From Craspedostauros australis (Eukaryota), in the NCBI GenBank assembly GCA_030167865.1, contig JALAGF010004023.1, positions 1 to 64,000 on the forward strand: a DNA stretch of 64,000 nucleotides, written 5' to 3'. Shown piece by piece: positions 20,463 through 52,020 of the stretch. Under the pieces are notes generated by a model. It was not told where the DNA came from, searched no databases, and saw only the letters and a list, made by a program, of their open reading frames with translations. Position 1 is the first letter of the stretch. Each line of letters begins with the position of its first letter. Made by a program: the position numbers and the translations under genes.

Positions 20463-23400
20463 TCACGCCGCTGTTTGATACGGCACGGCGACATCTTCCT
20501 GCTCGTCATCATCTGGAACGTCCATGAATTCTTGCAAATCCGTCGTGATGTTCTTGTTGAGGAACAGATGATCGATCGTAGCGTACCCAATCACGGCATT
20601 GACGGCCAACCAGCCACCCACCAAGGCGCCACTCAATGACTCGCCCACGGTCAGATCGGATCCCGCCACGTACAGGCCAGGATACGGGGTCTCGGGTCGC
20701 ACACCCTTGGCCGCGTACCGTTCTGGCGTGTGGCTCAGTCCGCGGTGCAGCGGGCCGATCAGCTGGGCGTGCGCCAACTTGCCCTGCAGCTGTGGGTAGA
20801 TCTGGAACAGATCGCGTTTGACGCGCTCCATGAGGCGCTGGTAGTCGCCGCCGGTGGATTTGTTCTTTTGGATGGCGAAGAGCTTGGGTTTGGTATCGAA
20901 GGCAGTGACGAAGTCATCGTCGGCTTCGATGGTGACCACGCACGTGGAGACGTCGCCATGGCGGGTCGCGAAGGATGGATCCTTGGCGGATGGGAAGGAT
21001 ATCTGAAGGTAGGAAATGCCGGTGTCGAATTTGTTACGCCGTTGCCGTTTTGGCTTGGACAACGATGACGACGATGCGATCGCATTTGCTTTGTCAGTCT
21101 TGGATCGTGTTGCTGATGAAACATCAGCCGTCTGCGGATTGGCATCATCGGACTTGGTTTGGTCGCTGCTGGATGCCTTATCTTCGCTGTCGTCCTTGTT
21201 GACGGCTTCGACCGTCACTTCTTCGTTGCCATCTGTGTGTTCGTTGCTCCAACCAATCTCGCCCAATCGAATTGCACCATTCTCATCCACCGTGTCCTGC
21301 GCAAGTCCGGCGTTGGGAAGGCGGTAGTAGTCGGCACCGGTGATGTTCAAGTCCTGCGCTGATCCGTTGAGACCGAACATGATCTTGAAGACCGGACGCC
21401 GTTCCGCCAAGGCAGGCAGTCCGCGTGGAACCTTGTACTTTGTGCGAATGTGGTCGGGCAGCAAGCGGATGAAGGTGGTGATGAGACTGTGGGTGGAGAT
21501 CACGACTGGCTCGATGCCGTTGTTCTGGCGTGTCGCGTCGAATTTGAGTTCCTGATCCTGCATCTTGACACCGATGCATCGTGGCGGGACGACGGTCTCC
21601 TTGCTGTCATCGGATGTCGTGGCAGCTGCCGCTTTTGGATCTTCCGGTGCAAAGAGAAGCTCCGTGGCTGATGCGCCGGTAACGACCAATCCACCGGACT
21701 TCTCAATGACATTGGCCAATGCGTGGCACAGCGCACGCGGTCCGCCAACGGGATAATGCATGCCTTCTCCGCTCATGACCGATGAGATGTTGGTGATATG
21801 CGCGCCCATGCTGGTCATGCTGGGTTTGATGTTCTCGCCCTTCATGCCGATGGCCGCCATGAGGGATCGCGTGTGAGCGTTGGCAGGGAAGCACTTGTCG
21901 AGGAATGCCCCGGCGTATCGGATGGCGGCATCATGGTAGGAGGAGTTGCTGCGCATGTCGTTGACGTTGTCGGCCAGGAGCTTGGCGAGGAAGAACTGGT
22001 TGGAGGAGTTGTTGACCTCCTCCATGCCCTTGACGTAGGTGCCGGTGGTGGACTTGCCAATCTCACCGTGAATGCCCGGCCAACCATCGGCCAGGAACTG
22101 CGCCGCATCTTCCATCAGACTGCGAACGCCATCACCTCGCAGCACGAATGGGAGGTCGTCACCAGCAGCACGAGCACCATTGGCACCCATTCCAGGCACC
22201 GACAAGATTTCGAAGGCATATCCGTCCGATGGCGATCCGATCTTGGCAAAGCGGATTCCACCTTGACAGTCGGTGTTGGTGCACAGTGCCGGAGCCAGGA
22301 GCCTCTGCTGTTTGGATATCTTGGACATATTGGTGGATTCGACGTCGAAGGGTACATTCTCGAACGCCTTCATCTCTTCGGGCTGACCACCGCTGACTGT
22401 GAAACATCCGGAGGCATCAGCGCGCGGCGACAGCACCACGACCCTGCGGCCAGCACGCGACAACAACGATCCCACGAAGAGCGGTGTGGGACCGGAACCA
22501 AGAATGATGGCATCGTAATCCGCTGCATCCAGCTTGCCCACTTCCGTGATGGGAGTTCCCACCGGTCGGCATAGAATATCGTTCTTTGCTTTGTCCTCGG
22601 CGCTGCCGTCGCCATCGTCGCCGCCATCACCATTGTCCTTCTCAATGTTGTTGTTGGTGTCATTGTCCGTAGCTTCCACGGCATAGTAGGAATCCGTCAA
22701 AGGCACGAAAGACTTCATGGAAGACAGAGGACGCTTGCGACGCCTTTCCAACAGACCGTGCCAACCCGCCACCAAAACGACCAAAGCCCATGGCTGCAAT
22801 CCGATGAGGAAGAAGAGCGCCGCCAATGTGAGCACCTCCCACTGCATTTTGCCACGGTACATCATGAAGAGAATGACCACCGCCGTCGAGCGCGGAATGG
22901 GCGGCTTGCTTTGTCGCAAGGGGCTGAAGTACCCAGTGGCGTACTTGCGCTGCATGGACCTGACGAACTGCTCCAGCTCTGGGTGATTCGTGACGAAGGG
23001 TCGGAAGATGCCGTACTTTTCATCGAGCATGCGTTCGAATTTGGCCGCCTTGGCATGGACCTTCCAAGCGCCCTGCTTGCTTTGGAAGTGCTCAGTGGTC
23101 TGATCGAGCATCTCCTCGAGTTCTGTCAGCCAATGTTCGGAATAGTAGAGCGGACGCGGTGGCTTAACTGGCTCATCCATGTTTGCTTTCACGTTCGTGA
23201 TGGTGCCATCGGCATCCACATCCACATCAACCTCCGCAGAGTCCTGCTCGGTCATGTTGTTGTACTGCGCCAGGAGATCATCGTACTCGACCAAATCCGA
23301 CGCGTACGTCTCGAGGGATTCACGCGCCAGCCTCAGGATCTCGGGGCCAAAGTAGGTGGCGATGTAATCGGGTGACAGCTCGCCCACCACGCTTCCCGAC

Positions 23401-23483
23401 GAGCAATGCTTGGGCTTTCCATTGGCACCGACAGTCTTCTTGACCTCGCCGCGTCTCTTGCGATCAGGCCTTCCCAGTCTCAT
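20463..23483 (-). CDS. Retinol saturase / carotenoid isomerase-like FAD oxidoreductase with N-terminal membrane extension
   Basis: 1006-aa single ORF. Rossmann-like DAIILGSGPTPL...AGRRVVVL, YPVGGPRALCHALANVIEKSGG, FPSAKDPSF, GLSHTPERY...RPETPYPGLYVAGSDL. Hydrophobic helices at about aa 200-245. Confidence 0.75.
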   Translation of the reverse strand: MRLGRPDRKRRGEVKKTVGANGKPKHCSSGSVVGELSPDYIATYFGPEILRLARESLETYASDLVEYDDLLAQYNNMTEQDSAEVDVDVDADGTITNVKANMDEPVKPPRPLYYSEHWLTELEEMLDQTTEHFQSKQGAWKVHAKAAKFERMLDEKYGIFRPFVTNHPELEQFVRSMQRKYATGYFSPLRQSKPPIPRSTAVVILFMMYRGKMQWEVLTLAALFFLIGLQPWALVVLVAGWHGLLERRRKRPLSSMKSFVPLTDSYYAVEATDNDTNNNIEKDNGDGGDDGDGSAEDKAKNDILCRPVGTPITEVGKLDAADYDAIILGSGPTPLFVGSLLSRAGRRVVVLSPRADASGCFTVSGGQPEEMKAFENVPFDVESTNMSKISKQQRLLAPALCTNTDCQGGIRFAKIGSPSDGYAFEILSVPGMGANGARAAGDDLPFVLRGDGVRSLMEDAAQFLADGWPGIHGEIGKSTTGTYVKGMEEVNNSSNQFFLAKLLADNVNDMRSNSSYHDAAIRYAGAFLDKCFPANAHTRSLMAAIGMKGENIKPSMTSMGAHITNISSVMSGEGMHYPVGGPRALCHALANVIEKSGGLVVTGASATELLFAPEDPKAAAATTSDDSKETVVPPRCIGVKMQDQELKFDATRQNNGIEPVVISTHSLITTFIRLLPDHIRTKYKVPRGLPALAERRPVFKIMFGLNGSAQDLNITGADYYRLPNAGLAQDTVDENGAIRLGEIGWSNEHTDGNEEVTVEAVNKDDSEDKASSSDQTKSDDANPQTADVSSATRSKTDKANAIASSSSLSKPKRQRRNKFDTGISYLQISFPSAKDPSFATRHGDVSTCVVTIEADDDFVTAFDTKPKLFAIQKNKSTGGDYQRLMERVKRDLFQIYPQLQGKLAHAQLIGPLHRGLSHTPERYAAKGVRPETPYPGLYVAGSDLTVGESLSGALVGGWLAVNAVIGYATIDHLFLNKNITTDLQEFMDVPDDDEQEDVAVPYQTAA

Positions 23484-30781: not shown

Positions 30782-31614
30782 TTAGTTGTCTCCGTAGTCA
30801 CTGAACATATCCGTCGGTGTGTTCTTGACGACCGTTGTTTTGGCAACCGGTGCAGGTTTCGACGCCGCTTCTGCTTCGTCGGCAGTGACCTTTTGTCTCA
30901 GTGCTGCAGCGCCTTCCATGTCACCCTTCATTTCTCGGTACTTGGCCAAGGCCTCCTCGGCCTGACGACGCTCCTCGTCAGTCAATTCATTCATAAATTC
31001 TTCATCTTGCGCATACGATTCGGTGACCACGGGTGCGTACAGATCATTGGAGTCGAGAATGAAGCCGACGATGATCGTCGACAGGAGTCCGCCAGCCATG
31101 ACGGCCTGTTTGGCGTTTCATTCAATATGGTATGATGTGGGAATGCAATGCATGTAGACGATGGAAGGAATGGATGAGAGGCATGTTGCAAATCTGATTT
31201 CAATGGATGAGTGTCCAGCACATTTTTGGCACATCGCAATGACGTGCACATAGTTCGCAAATGAACGATCGCGCCGATGATACAAGGAACTCGATAGAGG
31301 AGCACAACTTCCACATCGCTGTCGGAAGGCGCTGCACTGTTGATATGCAGCGTCTTGGATTGGATCTGGATTGCACTCACAATTCCACCAGCAAAAACGG
31401 TGGCAAACTCGTTGGTTGGAATGCTGGCAATGTCGGAATCGATGGTCGAAATGAGCATGGAATTCTGCTGGATGGCGGAGGCAATCATCTCTGTCGGTGG
31501 CAGCATGTGGCTGGGAGACACGGCAGCGCGGAATGCGGCCGTGGGCTTCGTGACGAAAGCCGCTGTGCTGGCAATGCACAGCACGAGGAGCAGGCAGATG
31601 GTGGTGGATGCCAT
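30782..31614 (-). CDS. Small plastid-targeted membrane protein of unknown function, 2 exons (31614-31381, 31105-30782)
   Basis: Signal peptide ending ASTAAF. The hydrophobic segment FATVFAGGI/AVMAGGLLSTIIVGFIL spans an in-frame GT-AG intron. Acidic helical C-terminus. Confidence 0.75.
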
Positions 31615-32546
31615 GGTGGTATTATGATGGATGTGGATGTGGATGTGGGTGTTGGTGTTGGTATGTCTGGGAATTGGTCTTGACGATGAACGGTGGGGGG
31701 CGCTTCGAACCCGAGGTTAGACGATGAAAAGGTGAGCAGCAATGTGCACGGGATGGGCACAGTCTATGTTTGAGTTCTCTTGGCGATTGACAGACTGGAG
31801 TTGGTTAGCGTCTTTCACAAGAGTGTCGAGAGTGCTGCTGTTGTTAACGTTCAGTGTGCCTGTCTTGATGTTGATGGCTGTGGATACGGTCGTCGCGTGT
31901 GTGTGAGTGATGAGCCATGAACGGTGGTGAAGTGGAAGACGGAAAACGTTTCGAATACACGAAACACGACTGATGTCATCTCAACGAGTCACGACCAAAG
32001 AAGAGGAGTAAAAGGGGATGTTATGAAGGGGTGATGATGATCCCCCTTTTCAACTTCCCCCGAAAGTGGCGTTCGGATCCATGAACATCAACATGAAGAA
32101 TCGCGAAGAAGAAATCAATCAAGGCACATCATCCACCTGATAATATCACTCTGTGATTCGCTGTAACACGTCATGACACGTCATATCATGTTCTGTTCGA
32201 TGTCTTTGGTGACGACATCACCAACAACGCAACACCAGGCTTCGCCCGAATCGGCCATCTGCCGACAAATCAAACGATCTCCGTTTCTTCCTTTCTTTCT
32301 TCGCGCATCAACTCAACTCTGTTCCATTCGAAGTCACACGCCTCTTTCTGTGGAAGCACAAGTCGAGGACGAAGACTGGGGGAAGAAGAGAGGCAGCGAT
32401 AGAGGATGCAGGCAACACCATCGAAGAGTACGAGCCACAGTCGAAGAACACAATACCAGCATACTCATTGAGTTGCTCATCAAAGTTGACGGAAACAGGA
32501 GGAGCCGCATGAGTCGTCCAAGAGCAAGACAGAGAAAGAGCAGAAG

Positions 32547-34997
32547 ATGGAGACGAACGGCGGCAGCCAATCAATGACCTTGCGGTCCACGAAGAGTCGC
32601 AAAAGCCGACATCGACATCGACGCCGATGCAGACGGCTGCCATGGATTGTGGCGACTGCTACCCTTGTCACCGTGTGCAGAAGTTCGGCTATCACATGCC
32701 GCGCCTTCTCCAATCCATCGATACAGACGCAAACACAGCCATTTGCTCGGGGTGGCCACCGACCAACATCCGGCAAAAGTCATTTGCCTCGGCGATTCGC
32801 ATCAACCCATTCACATGATCAATGGGAGGAACAGCGGGATGGGCAACTGAATCACCAGCAGAAGCAGGAGCAGAGGCAGACGGGACATTCGCAACGGCAG
32901 ACGCGGGGGCGTCCCGTTGATGCTGTTGCTTCATCCCACAGCAACGAACATCACAGCACAGATCCATCTGCAAGCTCGAATCCTCGTGTGACCACTTTGA
33001 GCAGACGAGATGCGATGCGTAACTTGTCGGTCATGGGACTGCTTCCCTTTGCTCTCGCCCTTGGATCCGATGCAGCAGCATCAGCAGCGGCACCGGATGC
33101 TGCCTCCAAGTCATCATCGCAGCAGCAGTCGCTGGAGGGCCTGCAATTTGCAGACGGCAAGTGGCAAAGCCTCACCCAAACAGGCACTAGCACGACGGGC
33201 AGCATGGTCGTCCCGGCCTACTTTGCCACGTACCTTGCCAGGTTCCTCATCCGATACGATGCTGGCGTCAGCTCTTGGTACGAGCAACAGAAGAAGTCCA
33301 TCTCACTGCTATCACAAGACGAGCAGGTCAGCCGTGAGGGACGCATCTTTGGAAATTTCGCAGAATCCTTGCAGCTTGGAGTCAAGGACTTTCTGCTGCA
33401 GGAGTTGAGAGCCACGCCTCAATCGCAGCAACCTGACAAGCCGCGCACGATACGGGACTGCTACAGCGTGTTGGCGCAGCTCTTGATGGACAAGTATGCT
33501 GCCACATCGTCCGCTTCATTAAGCAGCAAACAGCAGCAGCAGGAGGAGGACGGGGAGGAAATCATGAGACAAATTGCGCTATTGTTTGCCATGCTTCCGC
33601 CATCCCAGCAACCAGTCACCGTCCTCGGTCAGATCACGGCGATGTCAACATCATCGTCGTCATCGTCGTCTTCGTCATCTGTGCAAGCCATCTACAAATC
33701 GCTTTTCTCGCCAACGACACCAGCCACGCAAACGAAATCTGCCAGAAGCCAATCATCAACATCCATCAACGGTCTCCTATCGTCGGACTATCAGGTGCGC
33801 TTCATCTCCACCAGGTTGGCATCCGGCGGCAGCAACGCATATAACGGCGTGTCCTCCATTGCCTCCGCATCGGTTTCAGCAGCAGCATCGACAGTCTTCA
33901 CTATCGATCCACCCTTGCAGCTCTTCGAGGTGGGCATAGAAGAGGAGTTCGGGCAGACGGCCGTCGCAACACCCTTCGGTCCCTTGGCATCTTCGCCTCT
34001 CATCCGGGACCTTCCCGCCTACTCTCCCCTCATCTACGGCCTCTTCGGGATCAGCGGTGCCACCGGTTGCGCGTTAACGCATTCCGTCGTTATCCCTCTA
34101 GATGTCGTCAAGACCAAAGCGCAGACCAATCCGGAACAATTCGGAATCGTCTCTGCGGAGGCCATCACGACGAAGGCTGCCACAGATGGCACTGCCACAC
34201 TGGAATCTCCAAAGCCAAATCTGTGGACTGGAGCTACGCAAATCGTCAAGGAGGAAGGTATCGGCGGTCTGCTGACGGGCGCGCAGGCCACCATCGCCGG
34301 CTACTTCTGGTACGGACTGTCCGTCTACCCAACCTATACCTTCTCCAAACGATGGCTCGCCCACACCGTCTTGTCTCCGGAACAGGCAATGGTCCATGCC
34401 AACGACATTGCTCTTGTCGCTGGTGCCATGGCCGCCGTTGTTGCCAGCCTTGGCCTCACGCCGTTGGAAGCGGCACGTATCCGTGTCGTGGCCGAGCCGC
34501 AGCAGTACAAGCCGTTGGGATTGATCGGAACTTTGCAATCTATCGGACTCCAATCGAGCTACGCCGGTTTGCCATCCCTGCTGGCGCGTCAGGTCATATT
34601 TGGTTCCGTCAAGTTCTTGGCCTTCGAACGTGCCTGCGATGCCATCTTCCACGTCTATCCCATGCTGCGCGACACCACCGCCACTGCCCTGCTGGTCAGT
34701 TTGATCGCCGGCGCCTGGTCAGGCTGCCTGTCCTCTGTCGTTTCGCAACCCGCAGATTCTGTTCTCACCTACGTGGCACAAAACTCAAAGGATGGTCGAT
34801 CGTTGGGCGTTGTGGAAGGGTGCATCGAGATGGTACAGACGGATGGTCCGGGATCCTTGTTCCGCGGGTTGGGCAGCCGGTGCGTCTGGGCGGGATCCAT
34901 CATTGCTGGGCAGTTTCTCTTGTACGATGTGTTCCGCACCTACTTCGGTGTCAGTGGTCCGGACTTGTCGCAAGTCTATTCCATTACTATTGGATGA
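32547..34997 (+). CDS. Mitochondrial carrier family protein (phosphate-carrier-like) with about 490-aa N-terminal extension
   Basis: Three carrier signature repeats THSVVIPLDVVKT, TPLEAARIR and QPADSVLT resemble the SLC25A3/PiC signatures. The N-terminus has a hydrophobic stretch ending CRAF and an SRR...hydrophobic...AAASA segment. Confidence 0.85.
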   Translation: METNGGSQSMTLRSTKSRKSRHRHRRRCRRLPWIVATATLVTVCRSSAITCRAFSNPSIQTQTQPFARGGHRPTSGKSHLPRRFASTHSHDQWEEQRDGQLNHQQKQEQRQTGHSQRQTRGRPVDAVASSHSNEHHSTDPSASSNPRVTTLSRRDAMRNLSVMGLLPFALALGSDAAASAAAPDAASKSSSQQQSLEGLQFADGKWQSLTQTGTSTTGSMVVPAYFATYLARFLIRYDAGVSSWYEQQKKSISLLSQDEQVSREGRIFGNFAESLQLGVKDFLLQELRATPQSQQPDKPRTIRDCYSVLAQLLMDKYAATSSASLSSKQQQQEEDGEEIMRQIALLFAMLPPSQQPVTVLGQITAMSTSSSSSSSSSSVQAIYKSLFSPTTPATQTKSARSQSSTSINGLLSSDYQVRFISTRLASGGSNAYNGVSSIASASVSAAASTVFTIDPPLQLFEVGIEEEFGQTAVATPFGPLASSPLIRDLPAYSPLIYGLFGISGATGCALTHSVVIPLDVVKTKAQTNPEQFGIVSAEAITTKAATDGTATLESPKPNLWTGATQIVKEEGIGGLLTGAQATIAGYFWYGLSVYPTYTFSKRWLAHTVLSPEQAMVHANDIALVAGAMAAVVASLGLTPLEAARIRVVAEPQQYKPLGLIGTLQSIGLQSSYAGLPSLLARQVIFGSVKFLAFERACDAIFHVYPMLRDTTATALLVSLIAGAWSGCLSSVVSQPADSVLTYVAQNSKDGRSLGVVEGCIEMVQTDGPGSLFRGLGSRCVWAGSIIAGQFLLYDVFRTYFGVSGPDLSQVYSITIG

Positions 34998-35648
34998 ATC
35001 GGGTGCAATTAATGCTACACTTGCTGCCACAAGTCTGCACTATTGGATTTGCCGGCGCTAGAGAGACAGCGGATGCTCCTTGAACGTTGATACTCCAGAG
35101 AGGCGACCATCCTGGGCAGAATCATGCTCTTTTATGGGGGTTGGACACTCAATACGTTCCAACTGCTGTTGGGTAGAGCACTCTGACGTACTCAAGCGTT
35201 AGTATCTATTCTACCAGATTTAAATGACCTGAACTCGATCCAATGTTGATACTATGGATCCAAGGTACCTTGGAATGCAGCCGAATATTCCTGCCATAAT
35301 GCTGCTGATGTGCACGTCGCAAAAGTACTGCGAATGAAACATTTGCGCAGAGCTTAGGAGTTGTTCTGTATCCATGCTTGGTGGACACTCGAGTTTTCCT
35401 TGATAGTCGCACTCTGTATCAAACTCCCTCCAAGTTTGGTACTATGCTCATTCCACGTGACAAGCAGTCGCCACGATGGAGGGATTTTGAGGTTTTGGTG
35501 CGGAATGCTTGTGCCTTCGTCCTGTGCTGAGGCATTCCTGGTACAAGACAATGCAGCGCTTTGCGAAAAAGACGTGATGTGGCACTCAAAAATCACACGC
35601 TCGTTCCACCACATAATCATCAGCCCTCAGCCCTCTGAATTCACCATC

Positions 35649-36452
35649 ATGTTGACCGCCAAGCACAAGATCCGTAACCTGCGCAATGCCAACAAGGCCA
35701 AAGCTTGGTATTGTGATGAGTATGTCCTTACCCTCTTTGTTGCCTTTTCGATCGGGTTCTTGATGGGTTGCAATGGCGGAACAGCACCAGAACCAGAACC
35801 AGTACCAGCACCAGCACCACCCGTGCCACCATCTCATCCCTTGGATGGATATTACGCGTCACCCTTGCCCCTTGATTCTCGCACATATTGGAAGGAATGC
35901 GATGATGCAGGCCTGCTGGCTGTGAAACGCCATGTTAAACAATGGGGCAAGCATGCCGATATGAACCAGTTCCGGCTCCTCTTGCGCGGTGCCTTGAAAT
36001 CGATCGGCCGCAGCGATCCCCAGTTGGATATGAACGAGCTGTACGTGCGCCGCATCTACGCTGCTGTGGGTGGCGACATTGACGCCTACTACGGCGAGCT
36101 GGTGACGACATTCGGGTTTTGGCACGATGGGCGTCACGATCCGTTCGGCGCCGACGCGCGCAAGGATATCGTGGAACTGGTCGAGAAGGGCATGTCGATG
36201 GAGACCCTGACGATGTACGTGCAGGTGGGCGCCTCCCACACTGGTCTTTACAAACACCTCAGCGTACCATCGCGTTCTGCAGAAGCGCACTGCCAGATTT
36301 TGGAATCACAGCGACTGATGAAGGAGAAGGAACGCCTGGAGAGTTTTTGGTTCTATGCTTCCAAGAACCTTAAACGGGTCGAGGATAAGATTGCGGAACG
36401 GATGAAGCAGGCTGTCAACGATTGTTCGAGCAGATCTTCGAACAAAGGATAA
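35649..36452 (+). CDS. Orphan membrane-anchored protein, tandem paralog 1
   Basis: Intronless. Basic N-terminus, hydrophobic helix ending GC, Pro-rich linker, core shared with paralogs 2 and 3 (ALKSIGRSDP...FWHDGRHDPF). Confidence 0.8.
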   Translation: MLTAKHKIRNLRNANKAKAWYCDEYVLTLFVAFSIGFLMGCNGGTAPEPEPVPAPAPPVPPSHPLDGYYASPLPLDSRTYWKECDDAGLLAVKRHVKQWGKHADMNQFRLLLRGALKSIGRSDPQLDMNELYVRRIYAAVGGDIDAYYGELVTTFGFWHDGRHDPFGADARKDIVELVEKGMSMETLTMYVQVGASHTGLYKHLSVPSRSAEAHCQILESQRLMKEKERLESFWFYASKNLKRVEDKIAERMKQAVNDCSSRSSNKG

Positions 36453-37114
36453 GATCCGAGGAAGTGAAGGTGGAAGCATTGTCATTGTCCAAAGAGTAGT
36501 ATTATATGGGACAAGAATGAGTTTCGAGTACACTTGTGTGTTGCAGTAGATATTGCACGTCAGAGCAGTGTGTGTTGTGGAAGCACATATTCCAATTTCG
36601 TGTGGACGATCCAAGTTTGTGGCGAGGCCCACTTTATCCACGATTCGATGATGGTCCGGCGCAAACAAAACACGCGGTGCCATCAGCAAGGCAAACGTAC
36701 CACGCCATCCAAAGAGGGTATATTACCTTAGCATGCTCATCCATCCCGTCTATTCTTCGGGGAACTTCCTCCCCATCCTTGAGCTGACCATCGACTTTCC
36801 TGATTGGCTGTTCTCCCATGGCCTGTTGTGCACGATGTGATGTGAGGAGACTCTCTTGTGTTTCAGAACAGTTTGGATCTGAGGAATATCACCAAATCGT
36901 GGAGGTGGAAGTTCGTGTTTTTTTGCCACGTGACAGAACGACGCGGGGAGATCCCACAGACTGATGATGTTGGACGATTCGGGTTTCGTTGGAACATCCG
37001 TGTGCTGTGCTGTCGAGAACGACACGACGCAATACAATGCTCCTGAGCTGCATGTTGCTCCATTCTCATTTCTCTCTCTCTCTCTTTCTTTCTTCTTTCT
37101 TGCTCTCCACCACC

Positions 37115-37849
37115 ATGTTGAACACCTACGATGAACCGTGCACGCCACCCAACCGTGTGCGATGCAACGGCTTCATGGTCATTATCAAGATCATGATTCC
37201 CTTCCTGATTGGCCGTTGGATGGGCTGCAATCGAAGCTGCGATGTTGCGCCGAATCCGCCGCCACATCCATTGGATTTGCGCTACGCCACACCATTGGAA
37301 TTGGATTCGCATTTGTTTTGGCGAAAGTGTGACGAGGAAGGATTGATAGCCGTCAAGCGCCATGTGGCACAAAAGGGCCACAAGATGGATATGACTGAGT
37401 TCCAGCTCATCCTGCGCAGCGCCTTGCAATCCATCGGTCGCAGCGACCCCGCGTTGGAAACGGATCAGATGTATCTGCGTCGTGTCTTCGCCGCCGTGGG
37501 CGGGGACATTGATGCGTACTACAACGATCTTGTGACCACGTTTGCCTTTTGGCATGAAGGACGCAACGATCCGTTTCCCGGCGGTGCTCGTCACGAATTG
37601 ATGACGTTGGTGGAGGATGGGATGTCCCTCGAAGCATTCCGGACGTACGTGGAAGTGGGGGCAACCCACAATTCACTTCACAAGCGCTTGAGCCTGTCAA
37701 CGAATGCGGTGGACGCTTATGTGCAGATTCGAGATTCGCAGACGCTGAAGAGCGAGCGCAAGGGATTGGTGGAACATTGGAGCGTCAAAGCTGAGAAGAA
37801 GTGGATGGAGCTGAAGAGGGAGATTGACAGACGGCTCCGAGGTGAATGA
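37115..37849 (+). CDS. Orphan membrane-anchored protein, tandem paralog 2
   Basis: Same caccATGTTGA start context as paralog 3; ALQSIGRSDP...FWHEGRNDPF...YVEVGATH core. Confidence 0.8.
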   Translation: MLNTYDEPCTPPNRVRCNGFMVIIKIMIPFLIGRWMGCNRSCDVAPNPPPHPLDLRYATPLELDSHLFWRKCDEEGLIAVKRHVAQKGHKMDMTEFQLILRSALQSIGRSDPALETDQMYLRRVFAAVGGDIDAYYNDLVTTFAFWHEGRNDPFPGGARHELMTLVEDGMSLEAFRTYVEVGATHNSLHKRLSLSTNAVDAYVQIRDSQTLKSERKGLVEHWSVKAEKKWMELKREIDRRLRGE

Positions 37850-38504
37850 AGTCGCGGCAATGTGCCCATTCCAGGCGCTGTATTGGTTGAGCAAGTTCGA
37901 CCATGCGAAGGGGTGTAGATACCATACCAATCTCTAAACCAAACCCTGACAGTACGTAACGTCGTTGCAGAAGCTTGCGATGTAGGTATGTCCACTGGTG
38001 CTCGTAGGTATGATTGTGTAATGGTATGCTCAGATTTTGATGTGAGTGGGTGATCAAGCTTCGTCGCAAATGAGTTGCGTCACAGTTGGAAGGATATGGC
38101 CAATGCCACTTTTGCAGTTGGCAGATAATAACCCACCCAACCGTCCATTCATGCATCTATGTTGTATTTGCGAGAGCATGATGAGTTGCGAATGAAGCTC
38201 ATTCATTGATGGCAGTCACATGCATTGGAACTGCATCCCTGTTGGAGTCCCACGAAGAAGACTCATTCACTTCGTAGCTTTGCCATCGAATGCAATGCCA
38301 TCGTCTGTGTATTAGTATGGTCGTATTCAACGCATGAGACCCACGCAGGCTTGCGGTTGTTGTACTCGTGCATCGGCTATGCTTGTGTGCAGTGAATGCT
38401 GAGCAACGAGCTCATCGCATCGAATTGAATCATGGAGGTTGCTGAGGGATGCAGCATCCGGTCATAAATTCATCATAAATTCGAACATTGTCAAATCATC
38501 CACC

Positions 38505-39239
38505 ATGTTGAACGCCCGCCACAGAAAGATCCGCAAACCGCGCAAGATCGTGCGATTCTGTTTCCACGAGGATGTCCTCAGGATCGTGATTCCCTTGCTG
38601 ATTGGCCTCTTCATCGGCTCCAACTGCGGATACGACCCCATGACCGCTCCCGTTCCGTACCATCCGATGGACGAGCGCTACGCCACGCCGTTGAAGTTGG
38701 ATTCCCCTAAATTCTGGAAGGAATGCGACGACGATGGCCTGCTGGCTGTGAAACGGCACGCTACGCTGTGGGGCAAGAACGCCGACATGTCCCACTTCCG
38801 GCTCCTCTTGCGCAGCGCCTTGAAATCGATCGGCCGCAGCGATCCCCAGTTGGATATGAACGAGCTGTACGTGCGCCGCATCTACGCTTCCGCGGGTGGC
38901 GACGTTGACGCCTACTACGGCGAGCTGGTGACGACATTCGGGTTTTGGCACGATGGGCGTCACGATCCGTTCGGCGCCGACGCGCGCAAGGATCTCGTGG
39001 AACTGGTCGAGAAGGGCATGTCGATCGAGACCCTGAAGATGTACGTGCAGGTGGGCGCCTCCCACAATGGACTGCACATGCATCTGAGCCGATCGTCGAA
39101 CGCGGTGCGGGCGCATTATCAGATTCGTGAGTCGCAGCGATTGACGACCGAGCTGGACAATCTGAGGAATGCCTGGTTCGTCGGCGCACGGCGCGAGCGC
39201 TTGCGGAATGAGATCCGGCGACGTCTTCGGGATGAATGA
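38505..39239 (+). CDS. Orphan membrane-anchored protein, tandem paralog 3
   Basis: Same architecture; core nearly identical at the DNA level to paralog 1. Confidence 0.8.
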   Translation: MLNARHRKIRKPRKIVRFCFHEDVLRIVIPLLIGLFIGSNCGYDPMTAPVPYHPMDERYATPLKLDSPKFWKECDDDGLLAVKRHATLWGKNADMSHFRLLLRSALKSIGRSDPQLDMNELYVRRIYASAGGDVDAYYGELVTTFGFWHDGRHDPFGADARKDLVELVEKGMSIETLKMYVQVGASHNGLHMHLSRSSNAVRAHYQIRESQRLTTELDNLRNAWFVGARRERLRNEIRRRLRDE

Positions 39240-40549
39240 TCATGACGTGATCGAGGCAGTTCCGTCGTGCTTATGGAGCAATATTAGAATATTCTGTTTC
39301 TCGAGGGAGGAGAAATGATGGTCCATCTCTTTCTGTGCCCAACTCTTTTGCCAATGGGAGTTGAGAGTCTCTCTTGTGTGTGGAGAGGCGGATCGAGGAT
39401 TGATCACCATTAATGTAATTGCCGGCACGGGCGTTTCCAAGTAGAATAGGACTCACATCCAATCTCAAATTAAAATGGAGGGTGGAAAGGTGGCATAGCA
39501 TGGGACGATGTGCTAGTCTTCTGTCTTGTCATGTCATGCCATGCTTTCTCAAGTGCCTTGGGCAGCAGCTCGAGTGTGGCCGATGTTGTGTTGTCGCTTC
39601 GTCAAACAACGCTCTGCTCCATGGATTGTTGATGGAATGTGCCTCACTCTTGACGACAGACAGCGACACTCGTGAGCCTATGGACGCACAACTCAGCCCA
39701 AGAGGCCATGGCTGACATGTATGGGCGTCGTTGCATTCCATCGTGAACACAGGTGAAGCTGAAGATACTGCACCGATGATGCTGACCTCCGTCAGATGTT
39801 GTTGATGCCAAAACAGAGAGGGCGAAAATAATGATGCAACTTGAAAGGAAGATCTTGGATGCGACGGTATCTTTCGCACCAGAACGTGCTGGCGCCAAGA
39901 AGTCCGCCAATCATGACACGGCGGTTGGAATGTCATGGCTACCAACGCTTTTTTGGCAATCATCGACAAATTTAATTAGCCGTGGGGGGAGGGAAATTTC
40001 TGTTCCGGCGTGGCACCAATCGCCGTTCACGTGTCGCAACAGTCCGTAAATTTTGCAATCACCGTGTTGAAAATAGGGGTGTCGTGGTTGGGTGTGCGGA
40101 ACGAGGAAGAGCGAATGACGTGAAGCCAACGTGAAGGCGATGCGAAGCAACCACTCCACTTGTGACAACATTCATGTCGTGGTTGCCCTCCTTGCACCAC
40201 GACCACCACCAACACCACCACCAAGACGCGGAGGCAGAGAGAAACACAATCAGAAGGCATCCAAGATCAAGTGCAACCGTAGCTGCTGAACCCTCTGCTG
40301 CGTTTGCATCGTCATCCATTGAAGGCCGCACCCAAGAACCCACAATCCTCCACTCATTTGTGCATCTCAGAGAGCAGAGGTGCAGACCCCAGAGCGTGTT
40401 CTCCATCGACAACTCACTCCAAAGGAACTCCGCTGCATCGATTCAACGACCATCGCAGGACCTCCAGACGACAACAAGAAGAGGAGACGAGAACAATCAT
40501 CCAGAAGGCAATTAGGAGAACAGCAACGAAACGACCGCTCGAGACGACG

Positions 40550-43500
40550 ATGGCGGCAACCGAAGAAGATCCAGGCGCCAGCACAATGCCCACGACGACG
40601 ACGACGATGGCGGAATCAGAAACCAAGTGCAACACCTGCGACATGCCCAAGACCAAGGGCGACTTTTCTGGAAAGCAATGGAAGAAGTCTGCCACCACGC
40701 GCAAGTGCCGCGATTGCATCGATGCTGCCACCAAAACAGAAGACAAGGCCGAATCGCAAGATTCATCCAACGAACAGCCGGAGCAAGAAGCAGCACCAGC
40801 AGTGGTAGTGGAAGCGCCAGCAGCAGAACCACTTCTGGAGGATGCCAACCAAGAACAAGAGGACGCTTCTGAAGTCAAGGACGAGGCCGTTGAACCCACG
40901 GTCGTCAACGAAGAGATAGTTGAAGAAGAAGAATACGTCCAGGTGATTGAGAACGTCGTCGAGGACGTCGTCGTCGACCAACCTGCCACTGACGAGGCCA
41001 CCGAAGACGCTGTCGTCGAGGAGGCTGTCGTCGAAGAGCCCGCTGTTCAAGAACCAACCATCGAAGAGACAGTCGTCGAAGAGACCATCGTTGTAGAGAC
41101 TGTGGTTGAAGAGGCTGCCACCGAAGATAACGTCGTTGAAGAGATCACGGAAGAGATCATCGAGGAGCTGATTGAAGAGGTTACCGAAGAGGTCACCGAA
41201 GACATCGTGTCAGACATCGTCGCTGACGAAGCTCGCCCAGAGCAGCCACCCAAGGAACAAGAAGACACCGTCGCTACCGAAGCCCAACCAGAGGAAGAGC
41301 ACCCAGACGACGAACCGCAAAAGGCCAACCGTGAGGCCGACTTGCTGAAGCAAAACGAGGAAGAGAAGATCAGGCAGCAGATTGAGGAAGAGGCCAGACA
41401 ACGAGCCGCTCAACTCAAGAAGGAAAAGGAGGAAGAACAGGCGCGTGCGAGGAAGGAAGCTCTCGCGAGGGCCCAAGCCATCCTCGAGGAGAAGGAAGAA
41501 GAGGAGCGTGCCGCCATCGAGGAGGCAGCGCGCAAGAGAGCCGCTGAGGTCAAGCGACGACGGGAAGAAGAACAACAAAAGGCGGCCGAAGCCAAGCGAC
41601 TACAAGAGGAAGAGGCAAAGGCGGCCGAGGAACGTCGACAGAGACTGGAGGCTGAGGCCGAGCGGTTGGCAAAGGCCAAGGAGGCACGTCTGCTTGCGGA
41701 GGCTTCCAGACAGCGCATGCTCCAAGAGGAGCAAGATCGTCGCAGAGCTAGAGAGATTGCGGAAGCCAAAGCCAACGCCGACGCGTACAACAGGCCGCCC
41801 ATGAGTCCTGTGGCAGATCATCACGGCAACCACGAAGCACCCAAAACAGCCCCACGTCCAGTCAACACCAGCATGACCTTCGGTAAGTGTCTCATGTCAT
41901 TGCGACTGCAATATTGGTCCAACACCCTCGCCGCCGTCACTGTTGGTCGCAGCCGCTGTCATTGATGTGACAATTGAACACAATGATCCACAAGCTCTGT
42001 CTACCAGTCTCTCTCACTGTGTCCACATCTTTTCATTCCTCCCTTCCATTTGCCCCTCCATTTTCTTTACTTTGTTTTTGCCAGCTGATGCCTTCAGCAA
42101 TCATGGTGGATCACCTCGGGAGCCACTTTTCACGCCACGTGAAGTTAGCACTGCAGGTACGTACAAGCAAGCATGGTCCCTGGATGACTTCTGTCTGTGC
42201 AGTGCATGTTATGAGTGGTTCAATTTTCCTCGTTACCCTTTCTTCGTCAAATCAAGCACAGCAGTAACGCTCTGGTGTGTTCAATGCTCAATACCATGCC
42301 ATGCCATGCCATCATCACTCATCCCACGCAATGCCACACTTCACTACTTCATGCATTCCACACTGTGCCATAATTCACAGCAGACACCGACTACAAGACA
42401 CCCAAAGCGGCAGCTGCCAGCGCCACTCCCGTGTCAAACCAGTCCCATGCATCGCAAAAGACGACGGCAAGCACCGAGACTAACATGACCAGCGTCAGTG
42501 AGGCCACCACAGGAACAAACGCAACTAACAAGAGCGATGCCACCCCGGATACCACATCCTTCACGGCCCTTGGGGCAAGAAAGAGCAAGAAGGTCTCCAA
42601 CAGAATGAACGCCTACCTCGAGCAAGCTAGGAAGAACAAGGTCTCCGAACTGCCACCGGACAAGATCCCCATCCCATCGGCGTCGCCGGTCGGAGTTCGC
42701 AAGCTCGCATTCACAACACCCTCCAGCCCGACCTCCCCCACATCCAAAGCACATTTGCGATCCAAAACGCCGCCGCAACAGCGCCGCAGTTCCACAGACC
42801 TTTCCACCATCCGTGCCAAATTCAGTGACAACAGCAATCCCGGCCAACCCAACACGCAGTTCGTCTACGGCGAAGCCTTCCGTCAGAAGCAGCGAACTCT
42901 GAAGCAGGCCGCCAAGATCAAGGACAAGGAGGCCGTCAGCGTGGCACGCGGATTCGACGTCATGGTGTTGGATTCCGGCAAGGCCGAGATGGGAGAGGTC
43001 GATGCCACCAGTCTTGACAAGACCTTCGTCTTTCAGGGCGATTCCGAGGTCCAGCTGCACAACGGGGAATGCAAGATCGACTATGCCAACACGAGCTACG
43101 AGGCATTCGTCTTCTTGGTGCATCGCACGCGTGGTCTCCTGCTGCTGAAGCAAAGCATCAATCCCGAGACGCCACGATACGTCGTGCCAGGTGGTGCGCT
43201 GGTCGAGAAAGAATTCCTGAGCGCAGGTATGTTCCATGCTTGCTTGTTCACGTGTTCAATTTCCTGTGCTTGCCGTGCGCCGCTGGTTGCATGGTCAATA
43301 CGTTGGTGATGCTGTTTTGCAGGATGCACAAAAACATGATGGTTGTCAATTCATTCTCTCACACACGCACATGCTCTTGCACTGCCCGAACACCCGTTAA
43401 CAACAGCCAAACTCACTGGACACGAATCCGTCCAGTTACAGTTGGCCGGCCGCGAAGGTGCAGCACGAGAATTGCATCACGTCACCGGAATTGATGTGCG

Positions 43501-50829: not shown

Positions 50830-52020
50830 TCATCGCGGCATTGAGACCACCACAGGAGGACAGCCCATCTCAATGTATTCGATTGTTTTGGACGGGCCGA
50901 TGGCTTTCATGATGCTCGCCTTGGCTTCTTGCGCGCAGGTTGAGTCGGCTGCTGCCAGCAGGGGACAGAGCTCATCGTAATCGCTGTGCTTCCTTCCATT
51001 GACATCGAAGGCAGACGCATCATCGGCTTCGGCCAAATACCCCTTCAGCTTGAGGAAGCGGATGTTGGCCTGGCCGATGCATTTCAGGACATCCTTGGGC
51101 AAGCCCTTTTGCCGTTCGGTGATGGCCAGCGTTGATATGGTGCATATCGTGGCAAGCGCTTTTAGAATCTGAAGGAGAGACAACGGATTGTGGACATTGA
51201 TCTCTTCAAGCGTGAGGCTGTCGAGCTTTTCGTTCGCCGCCAAGCCGCGTGCGAATTCTTGGAAGAAGCACGTGTTGGAGGCGTCAATGTCGCTGAAGGT
51301 GATGTCCTGGATGCTTGCGTGGGAGGATAGCGTCGCGGCGAACTCGTTTGTTGCGGATGGGCAGGCATTGAAGGCGATGTGACTCAGGATGATCTTTTCG
51401 ATGCCATGATGCCTCTGTAACGAGTCCGAGAAATGGCTTAGCGATGTCTCACCAAAACTCGCGTTCGAGAGATCCAGCTCCCGCAACGATGGGCTGTGCG
51501 CCAGGATGTGCTGAAAGAACTTCGCATCATACGCATATTGAGGTCCCTCAATGTCATGGAAGGTTGGCTCCGCCCCGCTGTTGATCTCCAACGTTTGGAC
51601 ACTGTGCAGCGACGCCAGGAGGTTGGTAGATGACGCGAAGACGCATTGTGGAAGTCCGGCCAGCGTGATGTGGCAGAGTGAAGGATGGTGCTCGATACAG
51701 CGTGCCAATTCCTTGATCGAACGGTGAAGTGGCCCATGCGTTGTTGTTGGGTGAAGCGTGCAGTCCATCACCCGCAAGCTCAATCGTGAGACGTGCCTGC
51801 GATGAGCACTGCTCAATTCGGCGGCAACCGAATCAAATATGGCAGACAGAGCATGCTGCTCTGCTTCTTCGGAGCAGTCACCATCCAGCGGGCAATACAG
51901 CTCGATGCTCTCCTTGTTGACGTCAAGCTCTGCGATGCAATCTCCCTCAAGATCCAAGTATAAGTGCGAGTCCGTCGTGATCTCCGTCTCTGGTTCTGGT
52001 GCTGGTGTTACGGCTCTCAT
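50830..52020 (-). CDS. Leucine-rich repeat (RNI-like) protein
   Basis: 396-aa ORF with repeated LxxLxL units: SLCHITL, SVQTLEI, SLRELDLSN, GIEKIILSH, SIQDITFS, KLDSLTLE, TISTLAI. Confidence 0.65.
   Translation of the reverse strand: MRAVTPAPEPETEITTDSHLYLDLEGDCIAELDVNKESIELYCPLDGDCSEEAEQHALSAIFDSVAAELSSAHRRHVSRLSLRVMDCTLHPTTTHGPLHRSIKELARCIEHHPSLCHITLAGLPQCVFASSTNLLASLHSVQTLEINSGAEPTFHDIEGPQYAYDAKFFQHILAHSPSLRELDLSNASFGETSLSHFSDSLQRHHGIEKIILSHIAFNACPSATNEFAATLSSHASIQDITFSDIDASNTCFFQEFARGLAANEKLDSLTLEEINVHNPLSLLQILKALATICTISTLAITERQKGLPKDVLKCIGQANIRFLKLKGYLAEADDASAFDVNGRKHSDYDELCPLLAAADSTCAQEAKASIMKAIGPSKTIEYIEMGCPPVVVSMPR

Follow-up and report, generated by a model that had tools for sequence, protein, structure and literature searches.

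We found that three genes on the forward strand of a Craspedostauros australis contig, g1, g2, and g3, are true protein-coding paralogs that arose by tandem duplication, and that they form a family with no detectable relative in the collections searched. Purifying selection acts on their core domain, one gene-conversion event of ~250 nt has made copies 1 and 3 more alike over part of their length, and copies 1 and 2 are members of a transcriptome-derived protein set. We consider it very probable that all of these statements hold together as one claim. We infer that the proteins are best read as lineage-restricted, N-terminally anchored, single-pass membrane proteins with a Pro-rich stalk, a hitherto undescribed helical domain with a polar pocket, and a charged amphipathic tail. 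The full explanation, in which the genes, this architecture, a pocket mechanism, and a native origin are combined, is one that we believe somewhat more readily than we doubt.

A tandem array of three constrained genes

The window, by which we mean the whole 64-kb stretch of DNA that was analysed, contains three same-strand open reading frames (ORFs) in an array with a tandem unit of ~1.4 kb. By ORF and translation, copy 1 (g1; P0001) is a 267-aa coding sequence at 35649..36452, copy 2 (g2; P0002) is a 244-aa coding sequence at 37115..37849, and copy 3 (g3; P0003) is a 244-aa coding sequence at 38505..39239, all on the + strand. These coordinates, sizes, and strand agree with the initial annotation, and the frames are uninterrupted. 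An alignment of the three proteins gave full-length identities to copy 1 of 46% and 63%. In an alignment of the 148-aa core, the identities to copy 3 were 81% and 59%, and 80 of the 148 columns were invariant among the three paralogs (alignment A2). This resemblance is far above chance. When the three proteins were compared with the 64-kb window by tblastn, we recovered exactly the three copies (E ≤ 1e-67) and nothing else under an E value of 1.

We found transcript-labelled proteins for two of the copies in the protein collection. P0004 (315 aa; sources JGI/IMG and mmetsp) is an N-extended form of g1 that is identical to the genome from an in-frame ATG at 35505, and P0005 (270 aa; mmetsp) is a form of g2 that starts at an upstream in-frame ATG at 37037. 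The label mmetsp denotes ORFs of transcripts, as shown by row P0027. The exact 244-aa g2 sequence is also in the collection. The exact g3 sequence is not in this collection, and no form of g3 was among the similarity-search matches. Contigs of run X1, whose RNA nature is only a guess, cover g1 (35000-36487) and g2 (37109-37943) with 0 differences to the genome. They do not cover g3 or most of the g2-g3 spacer, a gap that we count as evidence neither for nor against g3. P0004 and P0005 match the genomic ORFs letter for letter and the X1 contigs are gapless, which bears out the earlier description of the genes as intronless for copies 1 and 2.

All three copies share M1-L2 and the start context CACC(ATC)ATGTTGA. 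For g3, no upstream in-frame ATG precedes the stop at 38400, and 38505 is the first possible ATG. Use of the upstream g2 ATG would add a second hydrophobic stretch to that protein.

The selective constraint on these genes is concentrated in the core, which spans 35829..36272 in g1, 37259..37702 in g2, and 38655..39098 in g3 (+ strand; alignment A2). Whole-length dN/dS values (NG86) were 0.23, 0.42, and 0.30. In the core we found dN/dS values of 0.18 for g1-g2 and 0.16 for g2-g3, and in the N-terminal 60 codons the values were 0.5 to 1.0 where computable. Core pS between copy 2 and the other copies was 0.66 to 0.67, with pN at 0.23 to 0.24. The duplications are therefore old, because copy 2 is saturated at synonymous positions relative to both other copies.

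Copies 1 and 3 differ from this pattern along one tract. Positions 35991..36240 of g1 align with 38817..39066 of g3 (+ strand) over 250 nt and differ at only 7 sites, and two stretches, one of 89 nt and one of 72 nt, are identical. Across codons 85-203, dS was 0.19 for g1-g3, while the two pairs that include g2 gave 1.33 and 1.50, and the synonymous sites that flank the tract are saturated. By blastn, g1 and g3 were 87% identical across 435 nt.

Search for relatives and folds

We looked for relatives at the level of sequence, domain, and fold. A profile HMM search of 1,835,955,588 representative proteins, prokaryotes and metagenomes included, returned two self matches only, and a relaxed word-index search at E ≤ 10 retained 2 of 6,484 candidates, both self. 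Pfam had no family for g1 or g2 even at E ≤ 10. For g3, the single Pfam match was a 21-residue stretch to DUF7067 (E, 0.086) at 13.1 bits versus a cutoff of 27. None of the three proteins matched NCBIfam, PHROGs offered nothing credible (one match at E 0.44, to the g1 N-terminus only), and PDB sequences gave zero matches at E ≤ 10. An ESM Atlas search with whole g3 and the g2 core produced no usable match. Motif searches of DNA found 40 matches in 185,579 prokaryote species genomes and 130 in IMG/VR viral contigs, none of which encodes a relative; a second motif, VTTF[GA]FWH[DE]G, had 0 matches in IMG/VR. Its sole metagenome match (L001) was rejected as chance, as the motif lies 9 codons past a stop and the frame is otherwise dissimilar. 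The initial annotation had described three orphan genes in tandem that share a domain it did not recognise, and had suggested profile searches for a known family. That description is upheld: there is no confident Pfam match, no NCBIfam or PHROGs family, and no non-self relative.

Comparisons of structure gave no usable match. When the whole low-confidence model was compared with the PDB by Foldseek, the best E value was 2.4, and the best fold match among viral structure models (BFVD) had an E value of 0.77. No PDB fold was matched, but the models are weak (pLDDT, 53 and 63) and were built from 3-sequence alignments, so this absence proves little and does not show the fold to be new.

Many lineage-specific genes can be explained by homology-detection failure. 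Here the core might belong to an older all-helical superfamily, or diatom orthologs might have diverged past the reach of sequence methods, with weak models hiding the fold. The adjacent mitochondrial carrier gene provides a measure of how well the collections sample this lineage. Its nearest sampled relatives, which include Seminavis robusta and MMETSP taxa, are only 36 to 56% identical (28 matches), and thus the collections hold no close relative of the organism. By our estimate, a core that evolved a few times faster than the carrier would drop below detection. Against this, the paralogous cores retain 59% identity at a saturated synonymous distance, with dN/dS of 0.16 to 0.18, and therefore orthologs of similar age should be easily found; yet not one marginal match appeared even at E ≤ 10. 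We consider detection failure unlikely on balance, but the identities of the carrier relatives keep it a live rival. By a "new" domain we mean only that no known family or fold can be attached to it, and a better model may reveal a known fold.

Proposed membrane anchor, stalk, and core domain

Each protein has one hydrophobic segment near its N terminus. By hydropathy, the segments are residues 25-41 of g1 (YVLTLFVAFSIGFLMGC; 35721..35771), residues 20-38 of g2 (37172..37228), and residues 24-41 of g3 (38574..38627), all on the + strand. The classical Kyte-Doolittle cutoff for a transmembrane segment is 1.6, and the best 19-residue windows scored 1.70 (g1), 1.72 (g2), and 1.86 (g3). In the AlphaFold model of g1, a predicted helix spans residues 17-39. 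The net charge of the N-terminal flank was +4 in g1, 0 in g2, and +6 in g3, and that of the C-terminal flank was -2 in g1 (15 residues past the segment), 0 in g2, and -2 in g3. A positive-inside charge bias is thus present in two of the three proteins, g1 and g3, and absent in g2. The anchor reading is weak for copy 2, because K25 and R34 lie inside its segment and the charge bias is missing.

The initial annotation had described a shared design of basic N terminus, hydrophobic helix, conserved Cys, Pro-rich linker, and core. We found the hydrophobic segment, the linker, and the core in all three copies; the basic N terminus is clear in copies 1 and 3 only, as the charge in copy 2 is 0. The reported segment endings, FLMGC, RWMGC, and IGSNC, are correct, but the Cys residues do not form one column, since that of copy 3 lies two columns later.

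We propose that each protein would enter the secretory pathway via its single N-terminal hydrophobic segment. The segment would then be kept in the membrane as a signal anchor, leaving the basic N terminus in the cytosol, a type II orientation under the positive-inside rule. On the lumenal or extracellular face, a Pro-rich stalk would carry a compact domain of ~150 aa that is all-helical, and a charged amphipathic C-terminal helix would come after it. This reading of topology and location is drawn from hydropathy and charge counts. Type II Golgi and ER proteins such as glycosyl- and sulfotransferases consist of a signal anchor, a stem, and a globular domain. The g1-g3 proteins resemble them in architecture only, with a short basic tail, a hydrophobic segment of 17 to 19 aa, a Pro-rich stem, and a globular domain. 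They differ from these transferases in that the domain is small (~150 aa) and all-helical and is followed by a charged helix, and there is no Pfam transferase match. Two further features bear on location. No N-glycosylation sequon is conserved among the three proteins (one of them has a sequon, right at the membrane), and the core offers no positive mark of a lumenal domain, because it has a single invariant Cys.

The same segments could be cleaved signal peptides with unusually long n-regions, in which case the mature proteins would be soluble and secreted or lumenal. Small residues and a Pro-rich stretch after an h-region resemble a signal-peptide c-region, and the h-regions here are short (17 to 19 residues), have small-residue ends (G-C and S-N-C-G), and precede a Pro-rich stretch. 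We saw by eye no common -3/-1 cleavage pattern across the three copies, however, the n-regions of 19 to 24 residues are long for signal peptides, and all three Kyte-Doolittle windows exceed 1.6. Cleavage is thus a rather improbable reading, and targeting to an organelle is less probable again. In the latter case, the basic N terminus and hydrophobic segment would act as, for example, a mitochondrial inner-membrane stop-transfer anchor, with the domain inside the organelle. Over the first ~20 positions, g1 and g3 carry many K and R residues and no acidic ones, but in g2 positions 6-7 are D and E and the net charge is zero, and the diatom plastid-type signal-peptide motif was not seen by eye.

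AlphaFold2 predicted the g3 core to be all-helical, with nine helices (pLDDT, 63.4; pTM, 0.59), and the g1 model is likewise all-helical. Mean pLDDT was 52.9 for the g1 model and below 55 in the C-terminal third of the core. All of the motif blocks listed in the initial annotation were found, and only the LDS-to-W spacing needed correction, from two residues to three. The invariant polar and aromatic residues of the core comprise 4 His, 8 Asp, 8 Arg/Lys, and 7 Tyr/Trp, and by our own count 15 of these 27 lie in or beside the inter-helix loops SIGRSDP, GGDxDAYY, and FWHxGRxDPF. The helix that follows the core is charged and amphipathic, with a maximum hydrophobic moment of 0.46 to 0.65. A coiled coil was considered for it and rejected, as strong hydrophobics occupy only 35 to 38% of a/d positions in the best heptad registers.

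The invariant polar and aromatic residues may form one pocket for a metal ion or a small charged ligand, in which case the core would serve the endomembrane system or cell surface as a binding module or enzyme specific to the lineage. We share, as the most likely reading, the suggestion of the initial annotation that the products would be lumenal or surface proteins with a putative active or ligand-binding site. The specific combination of type II topology and the pocket mechanism, drawn from sequence and models, is more tentative, and we would sooner doubt than assert it. Like EF-hand and other small helix-loop-helix ion-binding domains, the core is modelled as ~150 aa of helix-loop-helix units, with the Asp-rich loops GGDxDAYY and SIGRSDP. 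The EF-hand is defined by a canonical 12-residue loop consensus. We could not place this consensus by eye on either loop, and no EF-hand Pfam model matched at E ≤ 10. HD-domain and phospholipase-A2-like readings of FWHDGRHDPF were also rejected, as copy 2 has HE and N there and no Pfam model scores. A bolder possibility is that the core is a new fold from one diatom lineage, with a catalytic or metal-binding His/Asp/Arg/Tyr site on the lumenal or extracellular face; this is a long shot.

Probable native origin and significance

The setting of the array is that of an ordinary eukaryotic locus. Neighbouring genes encode a mitochondrial carrier, BTB-Kelch, AAA, kinase, and Aha1-TPR proteins, and GC3 is 0.63, 0.67, and 0.79 for the three copies versus 0.60 to 0.73 in six neighbouring ORFs. 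The intergenic DNA between the copies has no shared similarity. A search for shared promoter motifs found common 10-mers within the shuffle range (2 observed; shuffle maximum, 6), a scan for bacterial promoters and terminators found nothing above shuffles (promoter-like sites, 1 versus a shuffle mean of 4.6), and Rfam had 0 matches within the window. The sequence CCACGTGACA is found ahead of both g1 and g2, at distances of 196 and 189 nt from their respective starts.

The initial annotation had found the xMGC ending loosely lipobox-like and had raised a horizontal or viral origin. In such a scenario, a bacterial lipoprotein-like or giant-virus gene would have been acquired and later duplicated. 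The lipobox closes a short signal peptide and has the consensus [LVI][ASTVI][GAS]C. As in bacterial lipoproteins, the hydrophobic N-terminal segments of copies 1 and 2 end in x-M-G-C, and the genes lack introns. None of the three endings is an exact match, and only the LMGC of copy 1 is near, with M at -2; the WMGC of copy 2 has W at -3, the GSNC of copy 3 departs from the pattern, with N at -1, and the n-regions have 19 to 24 residues. In contrast to bacterial lipoproteins, the genes have no bacterial relatives and lie in a eukaryotic setting. There is likewise no relative among the motif matches in prokaryote genomes and IMG/VR contigs, among BFVD structures, or among the 1.84 billion representatives, GC3 is like that of the neighbours, and shuffles contain more bacterial promoter-like sites than the actual sequence does. 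We therefore consider acquisition very unlikely. It is scarcely credible that the three frames are pseudogenes, pieces of a transposon, or open merely by chance in DNA of high GC3: long antisense ORFs of 143, 268, and 206 aa overlap the three copies and show that open frames are cheap here, but dN/dS in the + frame is well under 1, transcript-derived proteins are known, the flanks of the units have no terminal or inverted repeats (the coding core itself being the only repeat family), the intergenic DNA is unshared, Pfam finds no transposase, reverse transcriptase, or integrase domain, and there are exactly three copies within the 64-kb window. We favor the view that the family is native to its lineage, where it would have been invented or have diverged past recognition, with no recent acquisition.

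Tandem families of this kind have a counterpart in another diatom. A report on Seminavis robusta (PMC7335047) describes 4594 tandem duplicates and finds that families which expanded in tandem did so largely in a species-specific way; those named there are recognisable families, such as LRR proteins, cyclases, and globins. The same report indicates that tandem duplicates are generally under relaxed constraint and that diatom genomes commonly contain orphan tandem families (PMC7335047). Like the families described there, g1-g3 are small, lineage-restricted, and expanded in tandem; unlike them, g1-g3 have no known domain. Their core is also more constrained (dN/dS, 0.16 to 0.18) than the general remark on tandem duplicates would lead one to expect.

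The practical value of the family is modest until a structure or localisation is obtained. Lineage-only families are common in diatoms. The invariant polar residues are direct mutational targets. If the new-fold reading were true, the core would represent a new class of enzyme or ion-binding protein that acts in building the cell surface or cell wall, and the duplication, selection, and conversion would document a young domain that is already indispensable. If the domain is truly without relatives, the family would show, cleanly and on a small scale, that a taxonomically restricted domain can fold, come under constraint, and be duplicated. The g1-g3 genes would then provide good material for how new domains arise and act in diatoms, in which many genes are lineage-specific and uncharacterised.

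Three paralogous genes, two with transcript-derived proteins

The array consists of three uninterrupted open reading frames (ORFs) on the + strand: g1 (35649-36452, 267 aa, protein P0001), g2 (37115-37849, 244 aa, P0002), and g3 (38505-39239, 244 aa, P0003). Over the full-length alignment, identity to g1 is 46% for g2 and 63% for g3. All three have a core of 148 residues, in which g1 and g2 are 81% and 59% identical to g3 and 80 of the 148 columns are invariant (including 4 His, 8 Asp, 8 Arg/Lys, 7 Tyr/Trp, and one Cys). When we searched the window in six frames with the three proteins by tblastn, we recovered g1, g2, and g3 at E<=1e-67 and found no further family copy below E=1 in the 64 kb; the copy number of three is that of the window. 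The ORFs, the alignment, and tblastn thus bear out the three same-strand paralogs proposed in the initial annotation. Its motif blocks are all present, with one slip in spacing (LDS to W is three residues). It also described a conserved Cys ending the hydrophobic segment, but the g3 Cys falls outside the aligned Cys column.

We obtained Nei-Gojobori estimates of dN/dS in the + frame. The whole-length values were 0.23 (g1-g2), 0.42 (g1-g3), and 0.30 (g2-g3), and the core values were 0.18 (g1-g2) and 0.16 (g2-g3), with pS saturated in these two core pairs (0.66-0.67). The C-terminal tail gave 0.34-0.48, and the first 60 codons gave 0.5-1.0 where computable. Given the low + frame values, the long antisense ORFs over g1, g2, and g3 (143, 268, and 206 aa) are by-products of GC3-rich coding DNA.

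An exact-sequence look-up in the protein collection returned g2, and g1 as the N-extended form P0004 (315 aa). P0004 and P0005, a 270-aa form of g2, are both labelled with the source mmetsp, and entries so labelled are ORFs of transcripts, according to row P0027. MMETSP is a marine eukaryote transcriptome project. Because both entries are transcript labelled and letter-for-letter identical to the genomic ORFs, they indicate that g1 and g2 are transcribed and that their coding part is not spliced. Contigs of X1, a public sequencing run whose kind is only guessed as RNA, match 35000-36487 and 37109-37943 with no difference or gap. We found no g3 in the 15-billion-protein collection, whether by exact sequence or among the search hits; the gene may lack annotation, or its expression may be limited to some conditions. 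Its intact frame and its core dN/dS of 0.16 versus g2 argue that g3 is functional.

M1-L2 and the context CACC(ATC)ATGTTGA are common to the three copies. Transcript-based models of g1 and g2 begin at upstream in-frame ATGs (such ATGs lie at 35505 and 35577 in g1 and at 37037 and 37052 in g2), and g3 has no in-frame ATG from its upstream stop (38400) to 38505. The N-terminal extensions of g1 and g2 are not conserved among the copies, and that of g2 is a translated CT-rich tract. The most economical reading would put the start at the conserved ATG in all three copies.

CT-rich tracts (TCTCTC/TTTCTT) occur just upstream of the g2 start (37060-37108) and upstream of the start (32547) of a neighboring carrier gene (32278-32302), and could represent a pyrimidine-rich element, in a 5' leader or a promoter, that the two genes have in common. 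In P0005, the upstream-ATG model, the g2 tract reads as a hydrophobic extension. The 10-mer CCACGTGACA, with a G-box/E-box-like CACGTG core, lies 196 nt upstream of the g1 start codon (35453-35462) and 189 nt upstream of that of g2 (36926-36935). It was not found upstream of g3, and the count of shared 10-mers falls within the shuffle range.

Homology searches and their reach

A profile HMM of the three proteins gave 2 matches at E<=0.001 among 1,835,955,588 representative proteins, both self. A word-indexed search of 5.8 billion clusters retained 2 of 6484 candidates, again both self, at E<=0.001 and at E<=10. Pfam searches at E<=10 were blank for g1 and g2 and gave only one sub-threshold stretch of 21 residues for g3. 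NCBIfam gave no match for the family, PHROGs no credible match, PDB sequences 0 matches at E<=10, and the ESM Atlas (two queries) no usable match. We also scanned with back-translated motifs and checked the matches by tblastn; viral contigs yielded 130, metagenome contigs 223, and prokaryote genomes 40, and none of these was a relative. A further motif scan gave one match in metagenomes, judged to be chance, and none in viral contigs. The main reading of the initial annotation holds: these are tandem paralogs of an orphan family, and their domain is not recognised. That the core belongs to a known helical superfamily hidden by homology-detection failure is possible, although we think it rather unlikely.

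As a search control, we used the adjacent mitochondrial-carrier gene (32547-34997, + strand), an ORF of 816 aa whose C-terminal part carries three mitochondrial-carrier repeats and whose N-terminal extension, ~480 aa long, is Ser- and Gln-rich. It returned 28 relatives at 36-56% identity. Relatives of 471-806 aa come from diatom-labelled sources, some named phosphate transporter (SLC25A3-like); those with a named source include Seminavis robusta and MMETSP taxa with names beginning 'Amphi' and 'Kry'. These matches make a diatom the most likely source organism, in line with the initial annotation, although the collections contain no close relative of it. The carrier's own protein was not listed among its matches, which suggests that the annotated proteome of this genome may be missing from the collection. 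Because the control relatives are only 36-56% identical, the blank shows, as far as these searches reach, that diatoms this distant either lack the family or carry it in a form that is not recognised; confinement to a single species does not follow.

Downstream of the array lies an ORF of 553 aa with no Pfam family (40304-41965, + strand). Within it, short acidic direct repeats rich in V and E (units of 27-32 nt, 40955-41143) precede a long stretch rich in E, K, and R that looks helical. Four further long ORFs have no Pfam family at E<=0.001 (20463-23483, 1006 aa, 50830-52020, 396 aa, and 54934-56268, 444 aa, all on the - strand, and 12645-13907, 420 aa, + strand), and genes without a known domain thus seem frequent in the window.

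Predicted membrane architecture

A single hydrophobic segment, 17-19 residues long, occurs in each protein (Kyte-Doolittle maxima over 19 residues are 1.70, 1.72, and 1.86 in g1, g2, and g3). The net charge is +4, 0, and +6 in the N-terminal stretch before it and -2, 0, and -2 in the Pro-rich stretch after it. Under the positive-inside rule, an established basis for orienting membrane segments, g1 and g3 are predicted to have a signal anchor oriented N-in, C-out. The topology of g2 is ambiguous because K25 and R34 lie inside its hydrophobic segment. We found no conserved N-glycosylation sequon in the three proteins.

AlphaFold2 models were built on the 3-sequence alignment. The g1 model is all-helical but weak (mean pLDDT 52.9, pTM 0.38), with a helix at residues 17-39 corresponding to the hydrophobic segment and a linker that is disordered; the helices of the core have pLDDT 56-80, and a single long helix spans 209-265. 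The core-only model (g3 target) has nine helices (pLDDT 63.4, pTM 0.59), with pLDDT of 65-87 in the first 90 residues and <55 in the last third. The post-core tail is a charged amphipathic helix (maximum hydrophobic moment 0.46-0.65); we dropped a coiled coil for it, as heptad regularity was poor (35-38% a/d occupancy). By our count, 15 of 27 invariant polar residues lie within or adjacent to three loops between helices, SIGRSDP, GGDxDAYY, and FWHxGRxDPF.

In the predicted layout, a basic tail leads into a short membrane segment, and a Pro-rich stalk then connects to a compact domain, as in type II proteins found in the ER, in the Golgi, and at the cell surface. Most likely, the proteins would form a membrane-tethered helical module on the lumenal or outer face that would bind a cation or small charged ligand or catalyse a reaction on one. 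We hold it very probable that the family is real, under constraint, restricted to its lineage, and associated with membranes; its specific topology and the mechanism proposed for the pocket are tentative. The same hydrophobic segment could instead be a cleaved signal peptide, leaving the protein soluble and secreted, which we consider unlikely, and organelle targeting seems less likely still.

Duplication history and origin

The repeat unit is ~1.4 kb, and successive starts lie 1430 and 1396 nt apart. The coding core is the only repeated DNA in 31000-43000, and the spacers between copies have no mutual similarity. We found a tract of low divergence between g1 (35991-36240, + strand) and g3 (38817-39066, + strand), with 7 differences in 250 aligned nt and unbroken identity across stretches of 89 and 72 nt. 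For codons 85-203, dS was 0.19 for g1-g3 and 1.33 and 1.50 for the pairs with g2; in codons 61-84, just outside the tract, pS was 0.91. As read from the sequence, this is the signature of ectopic gene conversion or partial re-duplication over an old duplication. An 11-nt string, CTCTCTTGTGT, occurs in the g1-g2 spacer (36851-36861) and downstream of g3 (39369-39379) and could be left over from the duplication unit or be a chance match; these two regions have 3 10-mers in common, and the shuffle maximum was 3.

The array genes look native to the genome by composition and setting. GC3 is 0.63, 0.67, and 0.79 in g1, g2, and g3 versus 0.60-0.73 in six neighboring ORFs, the neighbors are ordinary eukaryotic genes, and bacterial promoter-like sites are rarer than in shuffles. 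The intact, constrained ORF of g3 has the highest GC3 of the copies. The initial annotation raised a horizontal or viral origin from a lipobox-like Cys; this resemblance holds loosely, in one of three copies, but the searches returned no bacterial or viral relatives, and with composition near the neighbors' GC3 such an origin is unsupported and very improbable. A transposon or pseudogene is the least probable reading, as nothing resembles a transposon and no terminal or inverted repeats frame the units in 31000-43000.

Since no known family or fold can be attached, the family is new at the protein-family level. As a phenomenon, it is ordinary for a diatom to have a small tandem family found only in its lineage. 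Diatom genomes commonly contain species-specific families and tandem duplicates; in the Seminavis genome paper, 4594 tandem duplicates are reported, and the expansions driven by tandem duplication are largely species-specific (PMC7335047).
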